Source of the DNA: a virus
Taxonomy: Duplodnaviria > Caudoviricetes
DNA: 64,000 nucleotides
Virus record (IMG/VR): IMGVR_UViG_3300013936_000017
Location: 1-64,000 of that record
Direction: 5' to 3' (one strand)
Shown here: positions 2,818 through 46,437 of the stretch, piece by piece
Position numbering within the stretch: position 1 is the first letter of the stretch
Layout of the letters: each line of letters starts with the position of its first letter
Made by a program: the position numbers and the translations under genes
Notes under the pieces: generated by a model
What the model was told of the DNA's origin: nothing
The model's database searches: none
Seen by the model: the letters and a program-made list of their open reading frames with translations, nothing else

Positions 2818-3117
2818 ATATTTACCGAATTATCGGCCTGACGACCAATCCACTGGTTTATGATTCCGAACATCGTCGTGGTGCGCCACTTACTCCCGAG
2901 TTATGATTCGACGTCATCAATCATTTTGTCGGGTCGCATTTTTAATCTATTACGCACGTTCCCAAATTTGCCATGAATAGAGTCAACTTTCACATGGCTA
3001 TGGCCACTCTTGTCGTTGTCTGGCCTTTGTCTAGCTTTTCGCACTAGAAACGTCTCACACAAGCGTAGGCCACTCATGATTGATTGCCTTTGATAAATAA
3101 AGCCGTCCTACATCGGC

Positions 3118-17027: not shown

Positions 17028-17159
17028 GTGTGGACAGAGATGAGTTATTATAAATACCATCAATCGACAAGATTTGATGACGAAGAGGTTGATGATGTTA
17101 TTTTGGCATTAGATGAGCTGATTGTTGAAGAAGAAATGTTTGATATTGAGGATGAATAA
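17028..17159 (+). CDS. 43-aa highly acidic mini-protein
   Basis: Read by hand: MWTEMSYYKYHQSTRFDDEEVDDVILALDELIVEEEMFDIEDE; TAATG overlap with the polymerase start. Confidence 0.55.
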   Translation: MWTEMSYYKYHQSTRFDDEEVDDVILALDELIVEEEMFDIEDE

Positions 17160-19968
17160 TGGCATTAGATAAATTTATATATATTCACTCAATTGGCACA
17201 GATGCGTTATATACAGACGATGAAAAATATCGACATGACCGGCTGATTAAACTATATAAGCTGCGAAATTCTATCAAGGAATCCGGGCAAGATAAAGAAA
17301 TTCGTGATTGGCGATTAAAAAGCATAAACCGCGTACTAAAAAAAGAAAAATCTATCCTCTCTGAAATGCTTGATAAATCGTTGGAACATGACTATGCTCG
17401 AATATTGCGTTCAGATGCAATTCGAGACAAAGACGTTATCAATTTGTTTTGTTCTGAACTTACGCGAGCATTAAAAATTGAGCCGTTTACGCTTACTGAC
17501 GAGCTTATCATGGTTAACGTGTTTTTCTTTCAGGTGTTTAACAGTATTGTGCGCCATGGATTTATTTACAATGGCGAGAAGTACGTATTTTACACAGCCT
17601 CGGCTGGGCAGATAAGAACTAAACGAATGATTGCTATCAAGGAATCGTCTTACGAAAAAATCAAAAAACGCTTGATGTGTGGATTGACTGTCGAAAAGAT
17701 AAATGAGCTTGGTGGAATGAATCAGAACAAGTATTGCAGCTATCTGGCACTCACAAATTCGGCTACAGATGTTTGGGAAGGATTTGATATTCGCAAGTCT
17801 ATTGTTGTCGATGACTTTGAGACGATATTCAAGTCTGATGTTGATTATATTGACTATCAGACATATGACATTGAGCGGCGAAATATGGATGTTACGATTC
17901 CTTGTACTGATGGCTGGGGTATGGTCGATGGCGAGACGACTCGAATGTGTCGATTGCCATGGATAAAGGGACTTTTGGTAAATTTTAGATTCAAGGATTG
18001 GCTCAGAGAAAATTGTACGTCAGACCAATGGATTATTTCTGACATCTGGGGCGATGAGCATGATGTTGTGAATGATGACGTCAAATATATTTTCACCAAG
18101 AGTCAGATGAAATTGAGTAAATTTTATGATTCATGGGTTGAATATTGTGACGCGTTTGAAAAATACGGATGTCAAGCGTGTTATTGCAATATGGAAGAAG
18201 AAAATCTTCGTCCGTCCAGAATAAATTATCAGATGCTTCAGCAGCTTGTCAACCCGACTGATTATGAGCTTGATAGGATTGTAACTCGAACGAATCGAGA
18301 GATTTCGGCAATCGGCGTTGATTATCGAACGACTATGCGATTGCTCGGGGCGGTTGAAGAAAATGAGAATAAGAGCTTATTGCAAGAGGCATTGTTAATA
18401 TATCCTGAATTATTCAGAGACGAATATTTCAAAGATATATTAAAACAGACAAAAAAGAGTTTGGTTAAACAGGCGCGAGCTGGTCGGTTGAGAATCAATG
18501 GAAAATATTTATTCGTTTCGCCGAATCCCATTACGTTTTGTAGGTGGTTATTCAAGGATGAGAAATTGCCTGAAGAAGATTTTGGCCGAGATGAAATATA
18601 TACAAATCAATTCTTCGATGGTGATGAATTAGCTGTGCTTCGTTCGCCGTCCTTAGGCAAAGAATGGGCGATTCGCAAGAATAAGCGAAGTGAATATTTA
18701 GACAAGTGGCTTGGAGATTCCAAGTGTATATATACGAGTAGCTACGATACAATCAGTAAAATGCTGGCGTTCGACTGCGACGGGGACCGCTTACTCGTAG
18801 TAAAAGACCGAACGCTTATCAATGTTGCAAAACGTACAATGCAAGGTGTCGTTCCGCTTTACTACGAGATGAAAAAAGCAAAGGGTGGATTGCTTAATTC
18901 TGATTCGATGTACAAGAGTATGTCATTGGCATATACTTGTGGGAATATTGGGCCAATTAGCAATTTAATTTCTGTTGTTCATAATAACAACGAGGAAGAT
19001 AGAGAAGAAGCCGACAAGGTTATCAAGTGGCTTACAATGGAAACAAATTTTACGATTAACATTAGTCGCCTTGAGCAGTAATGTTCAAGTGAAAATCTGG
19101 TGAACCTGTAAATACAGGGTGTGCAGAAATGTGCTAACGGTGAAAATCTAAAGGCTGATGTCTATGACAATACCGTGCCAAGCCTTTAATGAGGAAGGTG
19201 TAACGACTATCCGAAAGGAGTAGCTTGTAGGTGAAATTCCTACTTGCGAAGTGCCAGACATCCATATTATGGATGAAGATATAGTCTATTCCCCTACTGA
19301 AATATCGGGAAACCGAGGGTATATAAAGAGATGGAGCTAAGACGCTATTTTTTTTAACGCGCCCAAAGTCAGTTGATAAAATTGTAAAAAAACATACAAA
19401 GGGCAAATTGCCAAACTTTTTCCAATATGCCAAAGATAAGACCGAATATCAGGTCGAACCAATAAATAATTCGACTATGAATCGAATTTCGGCTAAGATT
19501 GAGTCGTCGCGCCTGAAATTTTCAAAGACGATTGGCTCTTTGGATTATTTGATGCTTATGAATCATAATCGAGATTGCATGACAATGGTCGCGTCAGATG
19601 ATATTGTGATTCAGAGATATGATTATTGGTTGCGGCATCAATATTTGTTTAATCTTGAAGCGGATAAAGGTGTCAAGCAAGAAGATATGTATGTGTATCG
19701 CAAGATTCGAGAGGCGATTATTGACGAGACTGGCCTTGATGCTGAAGATGTGACAAATCGGCTTGTAAAATTTTTATATGTTAATCGAAAGTCGAGCCAA
19801 AAGAAAATGTTTTGGGCTTGTTTTGGAGAGGAAATTGTAAATAATCTCCAAAACAATACGAAGCAACTTGGAAATATTTGTCCGATTTGTGGCCGGAGAT
19901 ATATCCCTAAGAGGGCAAACCAAGCTGTATGTTCGGCAGAATGTGCCAGTTTGGCAAAACATATATAA
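17159..19968 (+). CDS. yonO: YonO-like single-subunit RNA polymerase; two exons 17159-19056 and 19329-19968, about 845 aa
   Basis: SAGQIR, TDGWG, R.PWIKG, LRSP, FDCDGD catalytic motif; splicing restores NFTIDGAKT; C-terminal CxxC..CxxxC. Confidence 0.88.
19057..19328 (+). mobile_element. ORF-less group I intron (272 nt) in the RNA polymerase gene
   Basis: P1 with U-G pair (CGAT/GTCG), P7 aacGACTAt...gaagataTAGTCt, terminal G, in-frame exon ligation. Confidence 0.9.
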
Positions 19969-38209: not shown

Positions 38210-38755
38210 ATGGCCGAAAAAATCACGAATGACGAGCAGTTATTAAAAGCACTCCAACCGGCGTTTCAAAAGGCTTGTCATTATGTGGCCGAAAAGATTT
38301 ACGAAACAAACAGAGAAATAGTCCAAAAGGTAGTGTATCAAGCTGGCAACCCTGTAGAATATGAACGCACAGGTGAATTTTTAGACGCATGGGCTGTTAC
38401 CAAGGAAAAATTTAATAAGAGCAAATACGCTTATTCTAAATTCTACTACAGACCGTCCGCTATGACGACTGGTTCCCCAAATTATGGCGACCCAGACTAT
38501 GCACAGCACGTAGGCGTTTGGGGCGATTACTATGGTAAAGCGTCTAAGGAATATTTAGCTGAAATTATTTACGAGGGTATGGCTGGCTCCATATTTGGAA
38601 GTGGCTATTGGACTAAAAAAAGAGATGCTTGGGATGCTTTGATTAAAGAGATTGATAAATGGGCGATTCGTAGCTGGTTTGAAGAAGCTATGGAAGCTCA
38701 GGGCGTTAAATTGCATCGTCATAGAACTACAAGCATTAAATTCATTGAGGATTAA
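38210..38755 (+). CDS. Hypothetical virion protein
   Basis: VY....P.EYERTG.F motif typical of neck-type proteins. Confidence 0.55.
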   Translation: MAEKITNDEQLLKALQPAFQKACHYVAEKIYETNREIVQKVVYQAGNPVEYERTGEFLDAWAVTKEKFNKSKYAYSKFYYRPSAMTTGSPNYGDPDYAQHVGVWGDYYGKASKEYLAEIIYEGMAGSIFGSGYWTKKRDAWDALIKEIDKWAIRSWFEEAMEAQGVKLHRHRTTSIKFIED

Positions 38756-38759
38756 CAAT

Positions 38760-39281
38760 ATGATATATTGTGGGATTGACGCAAGTACGTCTTGTACGGG
38801 GTGGTCGATATTCGACGAAGATTCTCTTATTGCACATGGAGCAATTCATCCTAAAGAATCTGCTGAATGGCGAGATAGAGTCATGCAGGAATGCATGGAA
38901 TTATCCAGAATCTTTAAGGAATATCGACCACAAATCCTATTTGCAGAAGATGTGCCGAACAAGCCCGGACATCTTACCATGCAAAAATTAGGAGTTATGC
39001 AAGGCGTGTTACTATCTTTGTGCGCCGCATATCATATTAAGCCATATTTTTTATTGCCGTCTAATTGGCGACGAGATATGGAATTATTTGATGGTACGCG
39101 TGGCGGTATGCACAGAGACGTATTGAAAGAAAAAGCCATACTGATGGCGAATGATATTTTTGGATTGAATCTGTTATGGAATGGAGCAAAAAGCAAGAAA
39201 ACCGAGGATGATGAGGCCGAGGCGATTCTTATTGCTTATTCGCAGATTCGCAAATCACACAAAAAGGAGTGTGATGGATAA
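38760..39281 (+). CDS. ruvC: RuvC-like Holliday junction resolvase
   Basis: CGIDASTSCTGWSIF, AED, PSNWR, DDEAEAILIA. Confidence 0.85.
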   Translation: MIYCGIDASTSCTGWSIFDEDSLIAHGAIHPKESAEWRDRVMQECMELSRIFKEYRPQILFAEDVPNKPGHLTMQKLGVMQGVLLSLCAAYHIKPYFLLPSNWRRDMELFDGTRGGMHRDVLKEKAILMANDIFGLNLLWNGAKSKKTEDDEAEAILIAYSQIRKSHKKECDG

Positions 39282-42200
39282 TGGCTAGTAGTGGTGGATA
39301 TAGTATTTATGTAGATGCAGAACTTAACTTAGATAAGTTAAAGAAGGATTTACAGACAAAAGGATTAAAACTGCCTCTTACTGTCGATAATTCCGGTGCG
39401 AAGAAGGCATCTAAAACATTAGAAGATATATCCAATAAAATGGAGGATGCAAATAGCCAAGTTTCACAATTTGGACTAACATGGCAAGAGGCATCGTCTA
39501 TTATGAGTAAGTGCGTCGACATTATTGAGAAAATGACCGACCAAGTATTTGAACTTGATACGTCATTAACAGAGTTAATATAAGCTCGCTTTCATTGTAA
39601 AATGAATGAATAATAATCTATTGAATTGCTGGAAACCCCTTAGAGCTATACAAACTACAACATAAGTATGAAATAAAACTAGGTGTGAGAGTTTGAAAAT
39701 TGTATAGATTGGGCAATCAGCAGCCAAGCCTTGAATAGAGGAAGGTTCAACGACTATCCCGCAAGGGAGTACACTGCAAGCGATTGGCGGTGGAAGTGGT
39801 AGACATCCAAGATTTGGATGAAGATATAGTCTGAACTCATATAGAAATATATGGAAATGTGTGGGAGTAGCGTCCTTTTAATAATGGGATTAAATTAGTT
39901 AGAATTCCTTATTGGGATTATAAAAATATTGAAAATATATTATCATCATTATTACACTAAAACATACTTGTTAAGAAGGTCTCCGACTTGTCGGGAAGCG
40001 CCTTAGATTTATATGTCGATAAACTTTCTGATATGGGAAAAGAAGTTGCTAGAACCGGTAAACCAAATCGGTCTGAGCCGGTATGTTGTGATGGTAAAGC
40101 AGCATAGAGAACGTCCCCTAAACCCTTGAAATCCTAAAGCCTTATCAGCTACAACATAAGGATGAGATATGCTTACGTGTGAATGCAAGAAATTATAAAA
40201 ATGATAAGGATTGCATATGGCGGAAACGCCTAAGTGCTGTAACAATGGAAGATTGGGCGCGAAGTCTTGATGAGAGATGTGTCAACAGAATATACGGGGT
40301 GGCCCTCCAACAATATAGGGTAAAGAATTATTCGGGCGGTATTTGAAAAAATATCGGATTATTGTATTGACAAATTACGAGATGTGTGCTATGGTTGTCT
40401 CATCAAATGAATGGAGGCAATAAATATGGGCAAGATGATGTTGATATTCGTAGCGGCTCTTATCTCTATTGATTATTTGAATAGTGGAATTCTAGGCACT
40501 ATTTTTTATATTTGGGGGCTTATTGAAGCATATAAAGTGCTTATTAGGCCGTTAATTCAGATTGCAAAAAAGCCGAAAAATAGTGATATTGATAATTATT
40601 TATATCATTGGAATAAGGCACAAAATGACATGGAAAAAGAATATGGTACTATTGATTGGCAGAATAGCCACAAAAAATAATTTGTTGATATAATAATAAT
40701 TTATGGCCGTCAGAGATGGTTGATGCGGCGACTTAACGGAATAGGTCGATTATGTAGAAATACATATAGAGAACGGGGTGAATTGCCGGAAACTCCTTAG
40801 AGCCTTTAACACCAAAGTGTAACAGAGTAAGGGATTGGACAATCGGCAGCCGAGCCAATATTGATTTATTGGAAGGTTCAACGACTAGGATTGAAATAAT
40901 ATCCGTAGACTTCAAGTGAAGTCGAAGTGCTCCGCAACCGCACAGGTTGAAGATATAGTCTAAACTTATATGAAAGTATAAGAGGTATTTATGATTAGGA
41001 AGAAAAAAGAAGCAGAAGTGCGCCAATGGTGTTCCGAAAATGGATTTGAACCATTGTCAATAAAAGGAGACTATTATAAAAACGGAAAATCCGTTATAAA
41101 GATTTCATTGAAATGCGAAAAATGTGGGACTAGATACGATAGAGATTGGAATAACTTAAAAAAGCAAAAATTCCCACATTGTTGTACTTCTTGCGCACAC
41201 ACAGAGATTCAAAATGAACGCAGGCTGAACGCGCAAAAGGTAGTTGATTTGTTTGCGAAGTACGGTTATAAAGTATTGACTCCAACAGACAGAATCAAGC
41301 CTGTAGGAAAGAGAAATCTTTATAATTTTGCAAAAGTAGATATTGAAGATAGGTTTGGTGTTGTGAGAAACATATGCTGGAATACTTTTCAGTCAAAATT
41401 GCAATATTACATTGACTTAAACGAAGGTGGTCATTGTTCTGCTGAGCTGACGAAGCCTAGTTCTTTAGAGCAAAAAGTAATTGATTTTTTGGACGAGAAT
41501 GAGATTCCATATAAGCGAGAATTTAAGTTTTCCGGATGTAGGAATAAATGTATGTTGCGCTTTGACTTTTGTTTATTTTATGATACAGAGAACAGAATTT
41601 TAATTGAGGTTGATGGTGAGCGGCACTATAAATCTTTATTTAAGGATTTGCAACATAATGATGAAATAAAAAATTATTATTGCACAACTAATAATATTCC
41701 ATTGCTTAGAATCCCATATTGGGAATTTAAGACAGACGATTACAAAAAGTCTATTCAAAATTTTATAAATACCAATAAAGTGTAACGAGCTTTATAAATA
41801 ATATTGATTTTCCGCAAAAATAGTTTCAACGATGAAGATTCTGCTAATTTAGCAAAAATTGCGGTTATGTTTACCAATGTAGCCGATGAAGAAATATCAG
41901 CTGCTGATAGTGCAGGCTTCATCATTTCTCAGATGAAAGCATTTGGTATTGAAGCCGAAAATGCAATACATATAATCGACTCTATCAATGCCGTTTCAAA
42001 CAACTATGCTGTTTCATCTGGGGATTTAGCTAATAGCATTGGCAATATGTCGGCGGCTTTGGCTGTTGGCAACAATTCATTTGAAGAATCTCTTGCGCTC
42101 CTCGCGAGTGGGACTGAGGTGACTCGAAACGCAAACAAAGTCTCTCGTGGACTTGTGAGTGTGCAGAGTCGCTTAAACCAAATTGTCGATGAAGGTTCCG

Positions 42201-45200
42201 ATGTTGGTCAAAAATTGACTGATTGGTATAAAGAGCATGATATTGCCATCAAAGACCAAGATGGGCAATTAAGAAGTCTATATGATGTTCTTAAAGATGT
42301 TGCTGGAATTTGGCCGACATTGACTAAGAACGAGCAAGCGTATTATCTTAATCAGCAAGCGGGTAGATTTATGCCCCAAATCAAGGCGTATATGCGGGGA
42401 ATTGCTTAGAGCCTTAGTTACTTGGAAGGGTAATGACCAACCAATAGTAAAAACACTAAGGATTGTTTAATCCGCAGGGAATTGTTCTTAATAGAGCTTG
42501 CCCTCAACGACTATCCCAAAAACGTGGCGAGGTGAGACGCTCGCAATAGGAGTACGGCCCAAGTGGGTGGGTGAAAATCCCTTAAATGGAAGTGCCTTGA
42601 CATTGAGAAATCAATGGAGATATAGTCTGAACATTATGGGAAATCCATAAGAAAGAAAGTTTTATTAAATTAAAAAATGGAATAATCGAGAGATATTGAT
42701 AGAGGTGGACGGGCAACAGCATTTTTATGTTGGTGGATGGACAGATGTGGATAAACTGCAATACAATCAAAAAACAGACAAGATAAAAGATGACTATTGT
42801 AAACTAAATTGGTATGAACTTGTACGCATTCCACATTGGATATATCGACACACGACACATAAAGATATATTAAATAAAACTTTCTTTGGCTAGAGTAACG
42901 ACCTAGCTTAACAAACTGTCGAATCAATCTCAGAATCTAGCGGCCATTTTATCGAATTTCAAGACGGCAACGTATGCGACAACGACTGCGCTTGAATCTG
43001 CTGGTTCTGCTGAACAAGAGAATCAACGTTATCTTGAATCGTTAAATGCTTCAGTTCAACAGTTGAAAGCGACATTCCAAGATTTTGCTAATAATGTAAT
43101 TAACAAAGATTTGGTACAAAATGCGCTGAAATTCCTAAATGCTATTCTAGAAGGATTAAGTAGTGGTGTTTGGACAACAATAACGCAGATTGGGTTACTT
43201 GCTGGCGTTTTAACGGGCGTGATTAGTATTGGTGGAACTGTTGGAAGTAAACTAATCGGGATGATTGGCGGTATGGGGGCATTTGGCACCGCTACTGCCG
43301 CCGCAACTGTGACAACTACAGGATTCGCCGCTTCATTAAAAGCCGCTGCGGCCGCTGCGGGGCCGTATGCTGCTGTTGCCGCTATTGTTGCAACAGTTGG
43401 TTATAAAGTCGTAAAATGGCTATTAAATCAGCGAGAAACATTAGAATCTGTCACTGAAGAGTTAGATAAAAATAATAGTGAGTTAGAAGCTAATAAAAAT
43501 AGGCTTCATGAACTATATCAAACTTCGTGGTATGATAGAACACCTGAGATTTCAGAGGAAATTGCAGCTCTCGAAGAAGAAAATAAAGAGTTGCAAGACC
43601 AAATAGACAAATTACAAGAACGTAAAAAAATTCTTGAGGGAGAAAAAGAACCCGGGAAGTCGCCTAAATATATTAGCGGTGGAACTGTAACAGAAACAAC
43701 TTCTGGTGGCTTTGCGCACACATATACTCTTCAATCGTGGCAAGAATATCTTGAGGGGATCAAAGATGCTCCGGGATATGCGGGAAAAACGCTTCGAGAG
43801 ATAGAGGATATGCTTGTAGATTCTGGTTCTACTATTATCTACGAAGCAGATAACACTATTACTCAACTTCAAGAAAAGCTATCTAGAGGAGTTAGACCAT
43901 CAAGTGATGAACTTGTAATGTACAATAATTTAATGTCTGAACTTGGTTCTTTTAGAGACGAAGATGGGATTATTCATTTTACGGAATTAAATTATTCTGC
44001 TGTACAATATGTTAGTTCATTGCTTGATTTGCAAGATGCGTATGAAGCAACAGCCGCAAAAGCCCGTACATATGCAGAGCAAGTAGCTTACACTAAGTCT
44101 AAAGATGCTCAAAATCAAGCGATTCTTAATGATGCCGTAGCTCAAGGTTTGACAACGCAATCAGAATATAACAACATGATTAAGGTTTATACTGATTATG
44201 GAATGTCATATTCCGATGCGTTGGCTGCTGTTGCAAAGCGATTTAAGGATGCAATTAGTGCTCTTGGGAATCTAAATAATGTTAGCGACCTAGCAAATGA
44301 AACCATTCAAGACTTAATCAAAGAGCTAACTAATGCTCAGACCGCCTATAATTTTTTCACAGAAGATGGCAATCTAAGCATTGATACTCTAGTAGATATT
44401 CGTGATGCATTTTCCGATGTTTCTGGTATTGACACATATATTGACCGCCTAGGCGCAGCTGGCAATACCGCTGATGATGTCCGCGAGATTCTTGGCCAAT
44501 TAGTAGAAGCTAAAGTTAAAGCGACATTCTCGACTGAGCAATTAGCCGGTTCTGAAGCAACCGTAGTAGCCAAGATGCTTGATGAGGCCGGTGTCGCCAA
44601 TTCGCTTGAAGTTGCTACGCGCCTAATTACTGAGGCGAAGTATGATTTAGCAAGTCAGAATATTGCGACAGATGGTACGATTGAGGATGCAATTAAACTC
44701 CTTAGTGCAGAAAAAAATGTATCTGAAGATGTTAGAATTGCATTTGTTAATCTTGTAGCTCAAGAGAAAATTTTCAACAATTCTACACTTGATGTTTCTC
44801 AAAAGCGGCAAGCGCTTATGGAACTTTATACAGCTGCCAATATGGTAAATGGTGCGTTGTCGTTTAATGCGGCATATGGCACGTTTGCTAATAATTATAT
44901 TGCTGCTGTTGGGGATGCCACAGAAGAAGAAATTCTTAATGCATTTAATCAATATTCTATTGATAAATACACACAACAGATTATAGATGCAACCAAAGAT
45001 GTCACATTTAAAGATAAAGATAAGAGTGGTACATCTGGTGGTGGCGGCTCGTCTAAATCTACAGAGGACACCAAGCTAACGGCGCTCAAAGAATCTGTTG
45101 AACTTCGCAAGTCTGAGCTTGACCTTATGGACGCTCAAGGCGCATCTGATACATCTCGGATTGAGAAAATCCGTGAAATTATTAAAGCTCTACAGAACCA

Positions 45201-46437
45201 GATTGATTATATGAAGAAATCTGGTGCAAGTCAAGCCGATATTAACGCGCTTATCAAAGAGCAGCTCAGTTATGAAGATAAAATCAAGGATATTTATAAT
45301 GAAATAATTGAGGCTCAAAAGGAAGCGTTGGAGACGCGGCGCGATAATCTCAAGTCTGCGTTTAGCACTATTACTGATATGGCGCAAGACGAGCTTGATA
45401 AAATCGAAGAGCTTGAAGATGAAATCAATAAGAAATATGATGATAAACTAGACGCTCTTGAAGATGCGAATGATGCACTTGAAGACCAGATTCAGCTTGA
45501 AGAAAAATTAGAAGCATTGGCCAAGGCTAAGACCACTAAAAAAATGGTTTATAGCAATGGCCAATTTGTCTATATGGATGACATTGACTCGATTTCTGCG
45601 GCTCAAAGTGAACTTGATACACTAAATCGTGAGCGCGAGCAAGAGCAACAAAAAGCAGAGATTGAGGCTCAACGCAAGCAAGAGCTTATTGATAATCGCA
45701 TAGAAGAGCGCAAAAAAGAATGGCAAGATTATATTGATACATGGGGTTCTATTGTCGATAATTACGAGAAGCAGCAAGATAAGTTGCTTGCATCACAGAT
45801 TTTCGGTATTAACCTAGAAGAACAAAATTGGCAGAAACGAATTGACAACGCCAAAAAGTTTGCAGACGAATATGCTAACATCATGAGTCAGATTAGCATG
45901 ATTGAAAACATTCAATCTGCGGCGTCTGCTAGTGGTGGCTTGACTGTTGACCCAAGCATTGATTATTCGGCCAAGATGCTACAAGCAAAGAGCGAGGATG
46001 AATTCTTGTATTGGTCTGCGTATCGTGATGCGAAGATTCAGCAAACAGGTTCGGAGTCTAAGATTACTAGCGGCAAAATTCGCAGTAATGAGCAATTGTA
46101 TAATGATTGGAAGAAAGCTCAAGGCTACGCCGTTGGCACATATTCTTCCAAGTCTGGTTTGGCTATGCTTGGAGAAAATGGCCCAGAGCTTGGCGTCCTC
46201 AAGGGCGGCACTGGCATTCTTCCTGCCGACATTACCAAAAATCTATGGGCGTGGGGAAGTACGACGCCAGCCCAGATGATGTACGCACTAGATTCTGTGT
46301 CTGGGCAAAATTCTGGCGGTGTAAACATGAACAATGTTGTGCTTGAATTCCCGAATGTTCGGGATGGTAACGACGCAAAAGATTTTGTAACTAATGTGGT
46401 CAATCTTGCTTATCAAAAGGCATATAAGAGGGCATAA
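39281..46437 (+). CDS. Tail tape measure protein; five exons 39281-39575, 39971-40059, 40710-40733, 41807-42364, 42919-46437; about 1494 aa
   Basis: Splicing rebuilds LDTSLTEFKKVSDL...VARTGSEMVDAATIFRKNSF...QQAGSNQ; NAVSNNYAVSS, LRSLYDVL and YAVGT...GENGPEL motifs. Confidence 0.88.
39576..39970 (+). mobile_element. Group I intron TMP-I1 (395 nt) with a 26-codon endonuclease remnant at 39880-39960
   Basis: P1 GAGT/GCTC, aattgctgg/aatcagcag, GACTA/TAGTC, terminal G; remnant NNGIKLVRIPYWDYKNIENIL. Confidence 0.9.
40367..40395 (+). promoter_or_regulatory. Intron-internal sigma-A promoter
   Basis: TTGACA-17-TATGGT with TGn extension. Confidence 0.7.
40426..40680 (+). CDS. 84-aa two-TM membrane protein inside intron TMP-I2
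   Basis: GGAGG RBS; MGKMMLIFVAALISIDYL and GILGTIFYIWGLIEAY hydrophobic segments; charged tail. Confidence 0.75.
   Translation: MGKMMLIFVAALISIDYLNSGILGTIFYIWGLIEAYKVLIRPLIQIAKKPKNSDIDNYLYHWNKAQNDMEKEYGTIDWQNSHKK
40734..41806 (+). mobile_element. Group I intron TMP-I3 with intact endonuclease gene
   Basis: P1 CGACT/GGTCG, aattgccgg/aatcggcag, GACTA/TAGTC, terminal G. Confidence 0.9.
40991..41785 (+). CDS. Intron-encoded Vsr/DUF559-like homing endonuclease with Zn finger
   Basis: CEKC..CTSC, S.LE, LRFDF, LIEVDGERHY, D..KN.YC....IPLLRIPYW. Confidence 0.85.
   Translation: MIRKKKEAEVRQWCSENGFEPLSIKGDYYKNGKSVIKISLKCEKCGTRYDRDWNNLKKQKFPHCCTSCAHTEIQNERRLNAQKVVDLFAKYGYKVLTPTDRIKPVGKRNLYNFAKVDIEDRFGVVRNICWNTFQSKLQYYIDLNEGGHCSAELTKPSSLEQKVIDFLDENEIPYKREFKFSGCRNKCMLRFDFCLFYDTENRILIEVDGERHYKSLFKDLQHNDEIKNYYCTTNNIPLLRIPYWEFKTDDYKKSIQNFINTNKV
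42365..42918 (+). mobile_element. Group I intron TMP-I4 with truncated endonuclease (about 42690-42893)
   Basis: P1 GGGT/GCCC, tgcgg/ccgca, GACTA/TAGTC, terminal G; only IEVDGQQHF...LVRIPHW remains. Confidence 0.88.

Follow-up and report, generated by a model that had tools for sequence, protein, structure and literature searches.

The window examined here is a 64,000-nt stretch of viral DNA, comprising the first 64 kb of the 97,963-bp IMG/VR virus record IMGVR_UViG_3300013936_000017, which is rated 100% complete; the source is a gut phage of roughly 98 kb. The + strand of the window encodes the portal protein and virion proteins, and also carries the tape-measure gene. That gene is interrupted by a 650-nt group I-type intron, intron A (40060..40709), which contains a gene for an 84-amino-acid (84-aa) membrane protein together with a predicted promoter and a ribosome-binding site (RBS). 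The explanation that best accounts for the whole, although we stop short of calling it probable, is that a group I intron without a nuclease carries a complete expression cassette 3' of its P9 stem, and that the product of the cassette excludes phage. All features described below lie on the + strand unless otherwise stated.

The exon map was drawn from three-frame translation and comparison with 11 related loci. Exon 1 (39281..39575) is an open reading frame (ORF) starting at the ATG at 39281; it is homologous to the N-terminus of the relatives' tape-measure proteins and joins exon 2 in frame. Exon 2 (39971..40059; ...KKVSDLSGSALDLYVDKLSDMGKEVARTG, ending ...GKEVARTG) was placed by tblastn to the 11 relatives. 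Intron A is followed by a 24-nt micro-exon (40710..40733, SEMVDAAT), whose first 5 nt form P10 of intron A and whose last 5-6 nt form P1 of the next intron, intron B (40734..41806). Exon 3 (IFRKNSFNDED..., 41807..42343, with an approximate 3' end) follows in frame. Joined across the proposed junctions, the exons give one open frame, ...TEFKKVSDLSGSALDLYVDKLSDMGKEVARTG|SEMVDAAT|IFRKNSFNDED..., and the ORF pieces flanking intron A, exon 3 among them, match tape-measure PHROGs (phrog_4211, E 1e-29).

The ends of intron A were fixed by alleles which do not have it. A degenerate DNA pattern for ...TG|SEMV(D/E)A... retrieved two IMG/VR contigs, L067 and L068, in which exon 2 adjoins SEMV directly. 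Both read ...RTGSEMV(E/D)AAT... without a break, the exons joining exactly at 40059|40710, and are therefore empty sites for intron A. No member of the cargo family is found in these two records, which are only 31% and 58% complete. In relatives without intron B, G|TCnGARATGGT runs straight into exon 3. Taken together, the empty sites and these relatives show that the coordinates given for the intron in a preliminary description of this DNA were exact. They also dispose of a twintron, with intron B inside intron A, as the 24 nt between the two are coding exon in the relatives without intron B.

Intron A was present in nearly all the alleles found. It occurs without intron B in L001-L007, L009 and L066, and the reverse is seen in L068. 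The close relative L066 (a 94,987-bp contig) contains intron A only: its exons 1 and 2 are fused, with no trace of the upstream intron found in the window, and 3' of intron A it has a single 1372-aa ORF with a PhageMin_Tail domain. Judged from these sequences, intron A is the constant interruption, and the nuclease-bearing introns are presence/absence variants. A search with a 26-nt motif of the intron core gave 46 viral stretches, and about 50 related phage contigs share the layout of intron A with a small membrane ORF as cargo. No isolate with intron A at the tape-measure site was detected by megablast and blastn among 50,697 phage records.

The first 300 nt of intron A are 70-78% identical at the nucleotide level in all relatives although every reading frame is closed. 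Base pairing was assessed in an alignment of 22 distinct sequences, in which 49 pairs could be scored in register. Pairing was found in 97.9% of the cells, and 28 of the 49 pairs were compensatory, with changes on both sides, a result reached by none of 500 shuffles. When the partner was slid by one to three columns as a control, only 29-40% of the cells were paired.

P1 pairs 40054-40059 with 40077-40082, and two of its pairs away from the splice site are compensatory. At the splice site itself, the U-A pair reported earlier proved to be wrong; the pair is U40059.G40077, a normal wobble. Among the relatives it is U.G in 16, G-C in four (L021, L023, L040, L056) and C.A in two (L012, L050). The splice-site pair follows the third base of the Gly codon, the guide sequence changing to match; for a group I intron, G-C is an unusual pair to find at the cleavage site. 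P10 is formed by 40710-40714 (UCAGA) and 40072-40076 (UCUGA), the latter immediately 5' of the guide strand of P1, and is missing in the L012 subgroup. All seven pairs of the P2 hairpin (40082..40106) have changed on both sides. Its 9-nt loop GAUGGUAAA (40090-40098) is unpaired and strictly conserved, as is CCUCC in the P8 loop (40304-40308), making two such elements in the ribozyme.

P3 is formed by CCCC at 40115-40118 and GGGG at 40296-40299; it encloses P4-P6, and its 3' strand lies between P7 and P8. At least seven other complementary strand pairs occupy this position in relatives, for example GCCC/GGGC, GCUC/GAGC, CCUCC/GGAGG, GAAGUG/CACUUC and UUGUACG/UGUACAG. J3/4 and J4/5 are both AAA. 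The P4-P6 domain (40123..40281) has three inner hairpins, two of them capped by GAAA. In the window's subclass P4 (40123-40128 with 40252-40257) is only 3 bp long (CCC/GGG), whereas the other subclass has 5 bp. P5 pairs 40132-40134 with 40247-40249, P5a pairs 40140-40147 (CCUUAUCA) with 40202-40209 (UGAUAAGG) and occurs in about 11 distinct, fully complementary versions, and P6 spans 40258-40281. Covariation is seen in P5, P5a, P6 and the three inner hairpins, and canonical introns have a homologous P5 extension.

P7, GAAUA at 40288-40292 with UAUUC at 40329-40333, encloses the 3' strand of P3 and P8 (40303-40305 with 40318-40320), which also covaries. The helix had already been put forward as compensatory, and the relatives agree, with GACUA/UAGUC, GAACA/UGUUC and GAGUA/UAUUC among the variants and AU, CG, GC, GU or UA as the middle pair. 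R-like (UCAACAGAAUA) and S-like (AAGAAUUAUUC) elements are present, the forms UCAACAGA(A/C)UA and AAGAA(A/U)UA(U/G)UC resembling R/S. The P9 hairpin (40337..40357) varies in stem sequence among the relatives but keeps its hairpin and GAAA tetraloop. The 3' tail (40681..40709) ends in G40709, and a G precedes TCnGARATGG in every relative examined. By its structure, then, with P1, P10, a P3-P7-P8 pseudoknot, a terminal G and empty sites, intron A is assigned to the group I type and is predicted to be self-splicing.

Two bridges lead, by sequence, from intron A to accepted group I introns. The 26-nt P6/J6-7 motif also occurs in introns of L019 and L027, to which the Rfam model RF00028, over its whole length, gives 36 and 31 bits. 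Secondly, the sole match among the phage records was a 125-nt stretch shared with the group I introns of the Clostridium phages c-st and D-1873; by blastn, 40125-40249 is 73% identical to the feature annotated "Group I catalytic intron" in D-1873. The L019 and L027 introns (motif at 3048-3073 on the minus strand and at 1592-1617, respectively) are at a different tape-measure site, near ...WYQEHKIAIRDQNGQL. A nuclease-like ORF, of 385 aa, is present in only one of the two, and the ribozyme lineage therefore exists both with and without nuclease cargo.

The cassette begins with a predicted promoter of the sigma-70/sigma-A type (40367..40395), in which TTGACA (40367-40372) is followed by a 17-nt spacer and TG-n-TATGGT (hexamer 40390-40395). 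An RBS, GGAGG (40413..40417), stands 8 nt before the ATG. Promoter-like sites alone are weak evidence in such AT-rich DNA, where 22 were found against 12 expected from shuffles. The promoter is credible because its hexamers, the RBS and the small membrane ORF are kept at one place in about 50 diverged relatives. A strict TTGACA-N15-19-TAnnnT was found in 37 of 47 sequences, 94-109 nt past the 26-nt motif, most of the remainder having TTGACT or TTGATT variants of the -35 element. In several relatives the -35 element abuts the P9 stem. Every tape-measure-site intron of the family has an AGGAGG-type site after the promoter, AAGGAGG-type sites in relatives being spaced as in the window, and the same order of promoter, RBS and ORF was seen in contigs that were found through the protein profile (L059, L060, L065, L066). 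The sigma-A promoter, GGAGG site and intact 84-aa ORF noticed at the outset thus stand, as signals conserved across relatives.

The conserved CCUCC of the P8 loop is complementary to the cargo RBS. Masking of the RBS in the manner of T4 was considered and dropped: among 34 relatives the computed accessibility of the RBS did not differ consistently between full-length and promoter-started RNA (mean unpaired 0.54 versus 0.40; in the window 0.19 versus 0.17).

The cargo gene (40426..40680) runs from the ATG at 40426 to a stop at 40678-40680 and ends 29 nt before the 3' splice site. Its product has two hydrophobic helices, a basic stretch, an amphipathic helix and a C-terminal EKEYGTIDW motif. AlphaFold, run on the family alignment, predicted helices at 2-20, 22-47 and 53-73, and a short turn at the C-terminus; the mean pLDDT (predicted local distance difference test) was 78.6. 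Compared with the L066 ortholog, which is 90% identical, the synonymous divergence (pS) is 0.345 and the nonsynonymous divergence (pN) 0.044; the pN/pS of 0.13 indicates purifying selection on the protein that the ORF encodes.

A peptide-word search of viral contigs with the 84-aa protein was empty, and the family was reached only through the intron DNA motif and a profile. The profile search of 1.84 billion cluster representatives gave 87 matches at E<0.001, all of 43-143 aa except for one low-complexity sequence of 276 aa. The members have one to three N-terminal hydrophobic helices, a Lys/Arg-rich stretch, a charged helix and the C-terminal motif (Q/E)(E/D)K(Y/I)(D/E)N(D/E)[WYF]-G-x-(I/D)(D/E). 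The Gly (G74) is invariant in 69 sequences and is preceded by an aromatic residue. In its own genome the protein is single-copy. No meaningful match to the cargo was found in Pfam, PHROGs, PADLOC or the ESM Atlas, or by Foldseek against viral structures. By these comparisons the cargo defines a family of small proteins that is new and is marked by a sharp motif at the C-terminus.

An intron carries one, two or three tandem ORFs of 58-116 aa, giving cargo lengths of 250, 431-434 and 700 nt, respectively, on intron cores that are 93-99% identical. The comparison of this position across relatives that the preliminary description had proposed thus gave a variable cargo of one to three small membrane ORFs. 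None of 21 cargo proteins scanned belongs to a nuclease family, so that the ORF is not a homing endonuclease; the earlier statement that it has no nuclease motif was correct, and the ORF is not a nuclease fragment. Nor does the 3' part of the intron hold an IS200/IS605 transposase or TnpB, as an IStron would, but only the membrane ORFs.

Small size, few transmembrane helices and a charged C-terminal tail make up the classic outline of a holin, and the family, with 58-116 aa, one to three transmembrane helices and a highly charged C-terminal tail, fits it. The same anatomy could then encode a holin, an antiholin or a lysis-timing protein, which would build up in the membrane and set the moment at which the cell wall enzyme is released. 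One of 21 family members has a weak match to a holin PHROG (E 0.036). The sole cell-wall amidase found (Amidase_3, genome 78184-78699, minus strand) is surrounded by replication genes, and no small membrane ORF adjoins it as a candidate holin of the phage. We nevertheless judge a lysis function unlikely. No holin family is matched at a meaningful E-value, the invariant aromatic-Gly motif is not a holin trait, and a copy number of 0 to 3 between close relatives would be odd for an essential timing gene. Moreover, the cargo lies about 38 kb from the Amidase_3 gene, behind a host-type consensus promoter and not in a late lysis cassette. The Amidase_3 region (L071, genome 77974-79458, minus strand) encodes a protein of about 490 aa between DHH/RecJ-like and primase-like genes, and no lysis cassette was seen there.

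If the assignments above hold, the following sequence of events can be proposed. In late tail-operon transcripts the ribozyme would fold, P1 and P10 would align exon 2 with the micro-exon, and 650 nt would be excised. As the cassette would be removed with the intron, the tape-measure protein would be made intact. This anatomy of the tail-operon transcripts, deduced by comparison with the relatives, we regard as very probable. Independently of the tail operon, host RNA polymerase would start at about 40402, inside intron A, giving a transcript that does not contain the ribozyme core, would be unspliceable and could serve as mRNA for the small protein. Such independent transcription is likely, given the conservation of the promoter. 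The protein would be inserted in the cytoplasmic membrane, with its basic/acidic tail and aromatic-Gly motif on the cytoplasmic side according to the positive-inside rule. It might there, like HK97 gp15 or T4 Imm, block genome entry at the step at which the tape-measure protein of a related phage would open the membrane. Entry exclusion is the function we favour, tentatively and by analogy with these proteins. The number and sequence of the cargo ORFs vary among near-identical intron cores, as expected for a gene in an arms race. The minus strand of the window also holds a tyrosine integrase-family gene (734-1564; phrog_1, E 4e-49), which leaves room for expression from a prophage; a temperate life of the phage is possible.

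A number of findings weigh against this proposal. At a meaningful E-value the cargo has no similarity to known exclusion proteins in Pfam, PHROG or PADLOC, the atlas and fold comparisons were uninformative, and nothing in these searches linked it to phage entry. The predicted cytoplasmic site of the conserved motif is not the first expectation for a protein that meets an incoming tail. No terminator-like site was found on the + strand in 39200-42000; the cargo unit is accordingly no textbook moron, and its promoter could also feed downstream sequence. In a genome set of 185,579 species the intron motif was found in a single contig, of 81 kb, in a metagenome-assembled genome, and that contig looks like a binned phage. 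As to the ribozyme, the group I assignment has two weak points, the short P4 and the failure of RF00028 (gathering threshold 50 bits) to match 40040-40400 even at E<=10. The model likewise failed to match the same intron in L012 and L021, so that calling the core divergent, as was done initially, was fair. Finally, no RNA run containing the intron A sequence was found among public sequencing runs; two public DNA-contig runs contained short identical or related fragments only, with no joint at the ends of intron A.

The Rfam and RNA-run results, and the abundance of promoter-like sites in AT-rich DNA, are also what would be expected if intron A were dead or its ORF silent, ie a decaying insertion tolerated in the tape-measure gene with an ORF arisen by chance. 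There are, however, stops in all three frames across 40060-40425, and an unspliced element would mean a broken tape-measure gene in about 50 contigs, one of them rated 100% complete. The strong covariation, the pN/pS value and the conservation of promoter, RBS and protein motif are also hard to reconcile with decay, and we give this possibility very little credence.

The same anatomy could also have a different use. With a predicted cytoplasmic C-terminal motif that is conserved and a membrane part that is free to vary, the protein resembles a tether with a peptide ligand, and could be an early host-takeover factor held at the membrane while the tail motif binds a conserved host protein, for instance one of cell division, transport, signalling or defence. 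Division inhibitors are known among the small single-pass proteins of phages, SPO1 gp56 being an example; the host-type promoter would imply expression before, or apart from, the late genes. A cellular origin is hinted at by P0073 (L062-L064), a weak relative of the family with 122 aa and a C-terminal ...NTYGTIDHW... (E 2e-4). The P0073 gene, which adjoins ABC-transporter and MntP genes, is not in an intron and comes with a TTGACA-type promoter of its own. To the cargo family P0073 may be what YebO is to HK97 gp15, a cellular cousin. That link is weak, however, the host partner is only hypothetical, and no similarity to known takeover or anti-defence proteins was found. A takeover function also leaves the fixed address inside the tape-measure gene unexplained, and on balance we consider it rather unlikely.

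That address, and the persistence of the intron at it, require some explanation of their own. Co-conversion by the nuclease of intron B, which cuts 24 nt away, could carry intron A along. As intron A is present without intron B, and the reverse, we infer that its near-fixation is most simply explained by selection on the cargo. The cassette might instead serve the intron: a membrane peptide of mild toxicity, or a stabilising function of another kind, would penalise genomes that lose the intron or do not inherit it, and so replace homing. Small hydrophobic peptides are typical type I toxins, and the intron does occur in nearly all alleles found without having a nuclease. But neither an antisense RNA resembling an antitoxin nor a second gene is evident, loss would go unpunished with a toxin alone, and co-conversion from intron B could spread intron A without any such device; this explanation appears improbable.

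The view of intron A as a domesticated cargo vehicle, first advanced in the preliminary description, fits the evidence: the ORF encodes no nuclease, is preceded by a conserved promoter and RBS of its own and is under purifying selection, the cargo varies, and the intron is near-fixed while the nuclease introns come and go. The further suggestion made there, of a protein that would exclude superinfecting phage and be matched to its own tape-measure allele, is one of analogy with HK97 gp15 and T4 Imm. More speculatively, and with little confidence, the lineage may have abandoned homing to become a fixed platform, with the fast-changing cargo as an exclusion determinant specific for tape-measure alleles. 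If so, an exclusion "lock" and its tape-measure "key" would be inherited as one unit which recombination cannot split, and the type and copy number of the cargo would define exclusion groups among co-circulating gut phages.

Several known systems share features with intron A. The group I introns in td, nrdB and nrdD (sunY) of T4 have ORFs for the homing endonucleases I-TevI, -II and -III, with their own promoter within the intron. Like intron A, they lie in phage protein genes and have the ORF outside the catalytic core (in sunY, after P9) and an intron promoter, which for intron A is a predicted one. They differ in that their ORFs move the intron, whereas the intron A ORF is a small membrane protein without a nuclease family match, and in that T4 hides the RBS of the ORF in long transcripts, of which intron A gives no consistent sign. 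The IStrons of Clostridia are reportedly group I introns fused to an IS200/IS605 element, the host gene surviving by splicing. There too the 3' part of the ribozyme carries cargo other than a homing endonuclease; that cargo is transposition machinery (TnpA/TnpB), while the cargo of intron A has no mobility function. A group I intron in the fungal mitochondrial rnl gene encodes the ribosomal protein Rps3. It resembles intron A in having one fixed site and a non-nuclease gene useful to the host genome, but is organellar, has no separate promoter, and carries a housekeeping gene that does not vary. In nucleus-forming jumbo phages an intron-encoded nuclease is said to be used in competition between phages. 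This would parallel the proposed role of the cargo, as group I intron cargo in a conflict between co-infecting phages, except that in those phages the cargo has remained an endonuclease, directed at the DNA of the rival and not acting at the membrane.

Among exclusion proteins, T4 Imm, with about 83 aa, is located in the membrane and prevents superinfecting phages from injecting their DNA. It is similar to the cargo in size and location, but Imm is an ordinary early gene, not intron-borne, and no sequence similarity between the two was detected. The function of Imm is established, while that of the cargo is proposed. The closer parallel is HK97 gp15, a small inner-membrane protein encoded by a moron with its own promoter directly upstream of the tape-measure gene, which blocks DNA entry in a manner dependent on the tail region of the incoming phage (PMC3594210). 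In both cases a small membrane protein gene with its own promoter (for the cargo, one predicted from conservation) stands in the late tail operon at the tape-measure gene. Gene 15 is intergenic and has its own terminator, whereas the intron A cassette is intragenic, inside a gene and within an intron, has no terminator of its own and would be made harmless by the ribozyme. The YebO-like gp15 has no sequence relationship to the cargo, whose function is proposed by analogy.

Neither separately promoted intron ORFs, as in T4, nor non-nuclease passengers, as in the Rps3 intron and the IStrons, are new. To our knowledge, however, phage group I introns have been regarded as selfish, their only passengers being the nucleases that move them. 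In a full-text literature search, whose coverage was incomplete, we found no description of a phage group I intron with a promoter-driven membrane-protein gene, nor of such an intron family in tape-measure genes. What appears to be new is a group I intron as the fixed carrier of a moron-like accessory gene; in the contigs compared, from a clade of gut phages of roughly 100 kb, the intron A family is close to fixation at a single site. Accessory genes can thus be docked safely in an essential gene by means of a ribozyme. "Morons" docked in this way escape gene-by-gene annotation, since gene callers split the tape-measure gene and call the ORF hypothetical. The core of intron A also represents a group I subclass invisible to the Rfam model, which matters for surveys of introns in metagenomes. 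If exclusion is indeed the function, the arrangement would be a compact natural case in which an immunity factor is tightly linked to its target.

At least four group I introns split the tape-measure gene (39281-46437), at 39576-39970, 40060-40709, 40734-41806 and about 42344-42900. Intron 1 (39576..39970) matches RF00028 with 95 bits at 39572-39854 and has the decayed tail of a nuclease ORF, with the remnant ...RIPYWDY... at 39878-39957. Intron B is a canonical group I intron (76.8 bits, 40724-40982) with an intact gene for a 264-aa homing endonuclease (40991-41785; PHROG 559 HNH endonuclease, E 7e-28). The last of the four gives a weak Rfam group I match at 42343-42651 (26.5 bits), and a second decayed nuclease tail, ...VRIPHW..., is found at 42660-42890. 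Both tails resemble the C-terminus of the intact 264-aa nuclease (...LLRIPYWEF...). Elsewhere in the window, a group I intron at 19047-19309 (53 bits in Rfam) splits a PHROG 8308 gene of unknown function into 17159-19081 and 19408-19968. An ORF for a RuvC-like Holliday-junction resolvase (38652-39281; phrog_827, E 1e-13), odd in a tail module, ends exactly at the start of the tape-measure gene, and relatives of the window phage have SPbeta-type tail genes (YomU, YomN).

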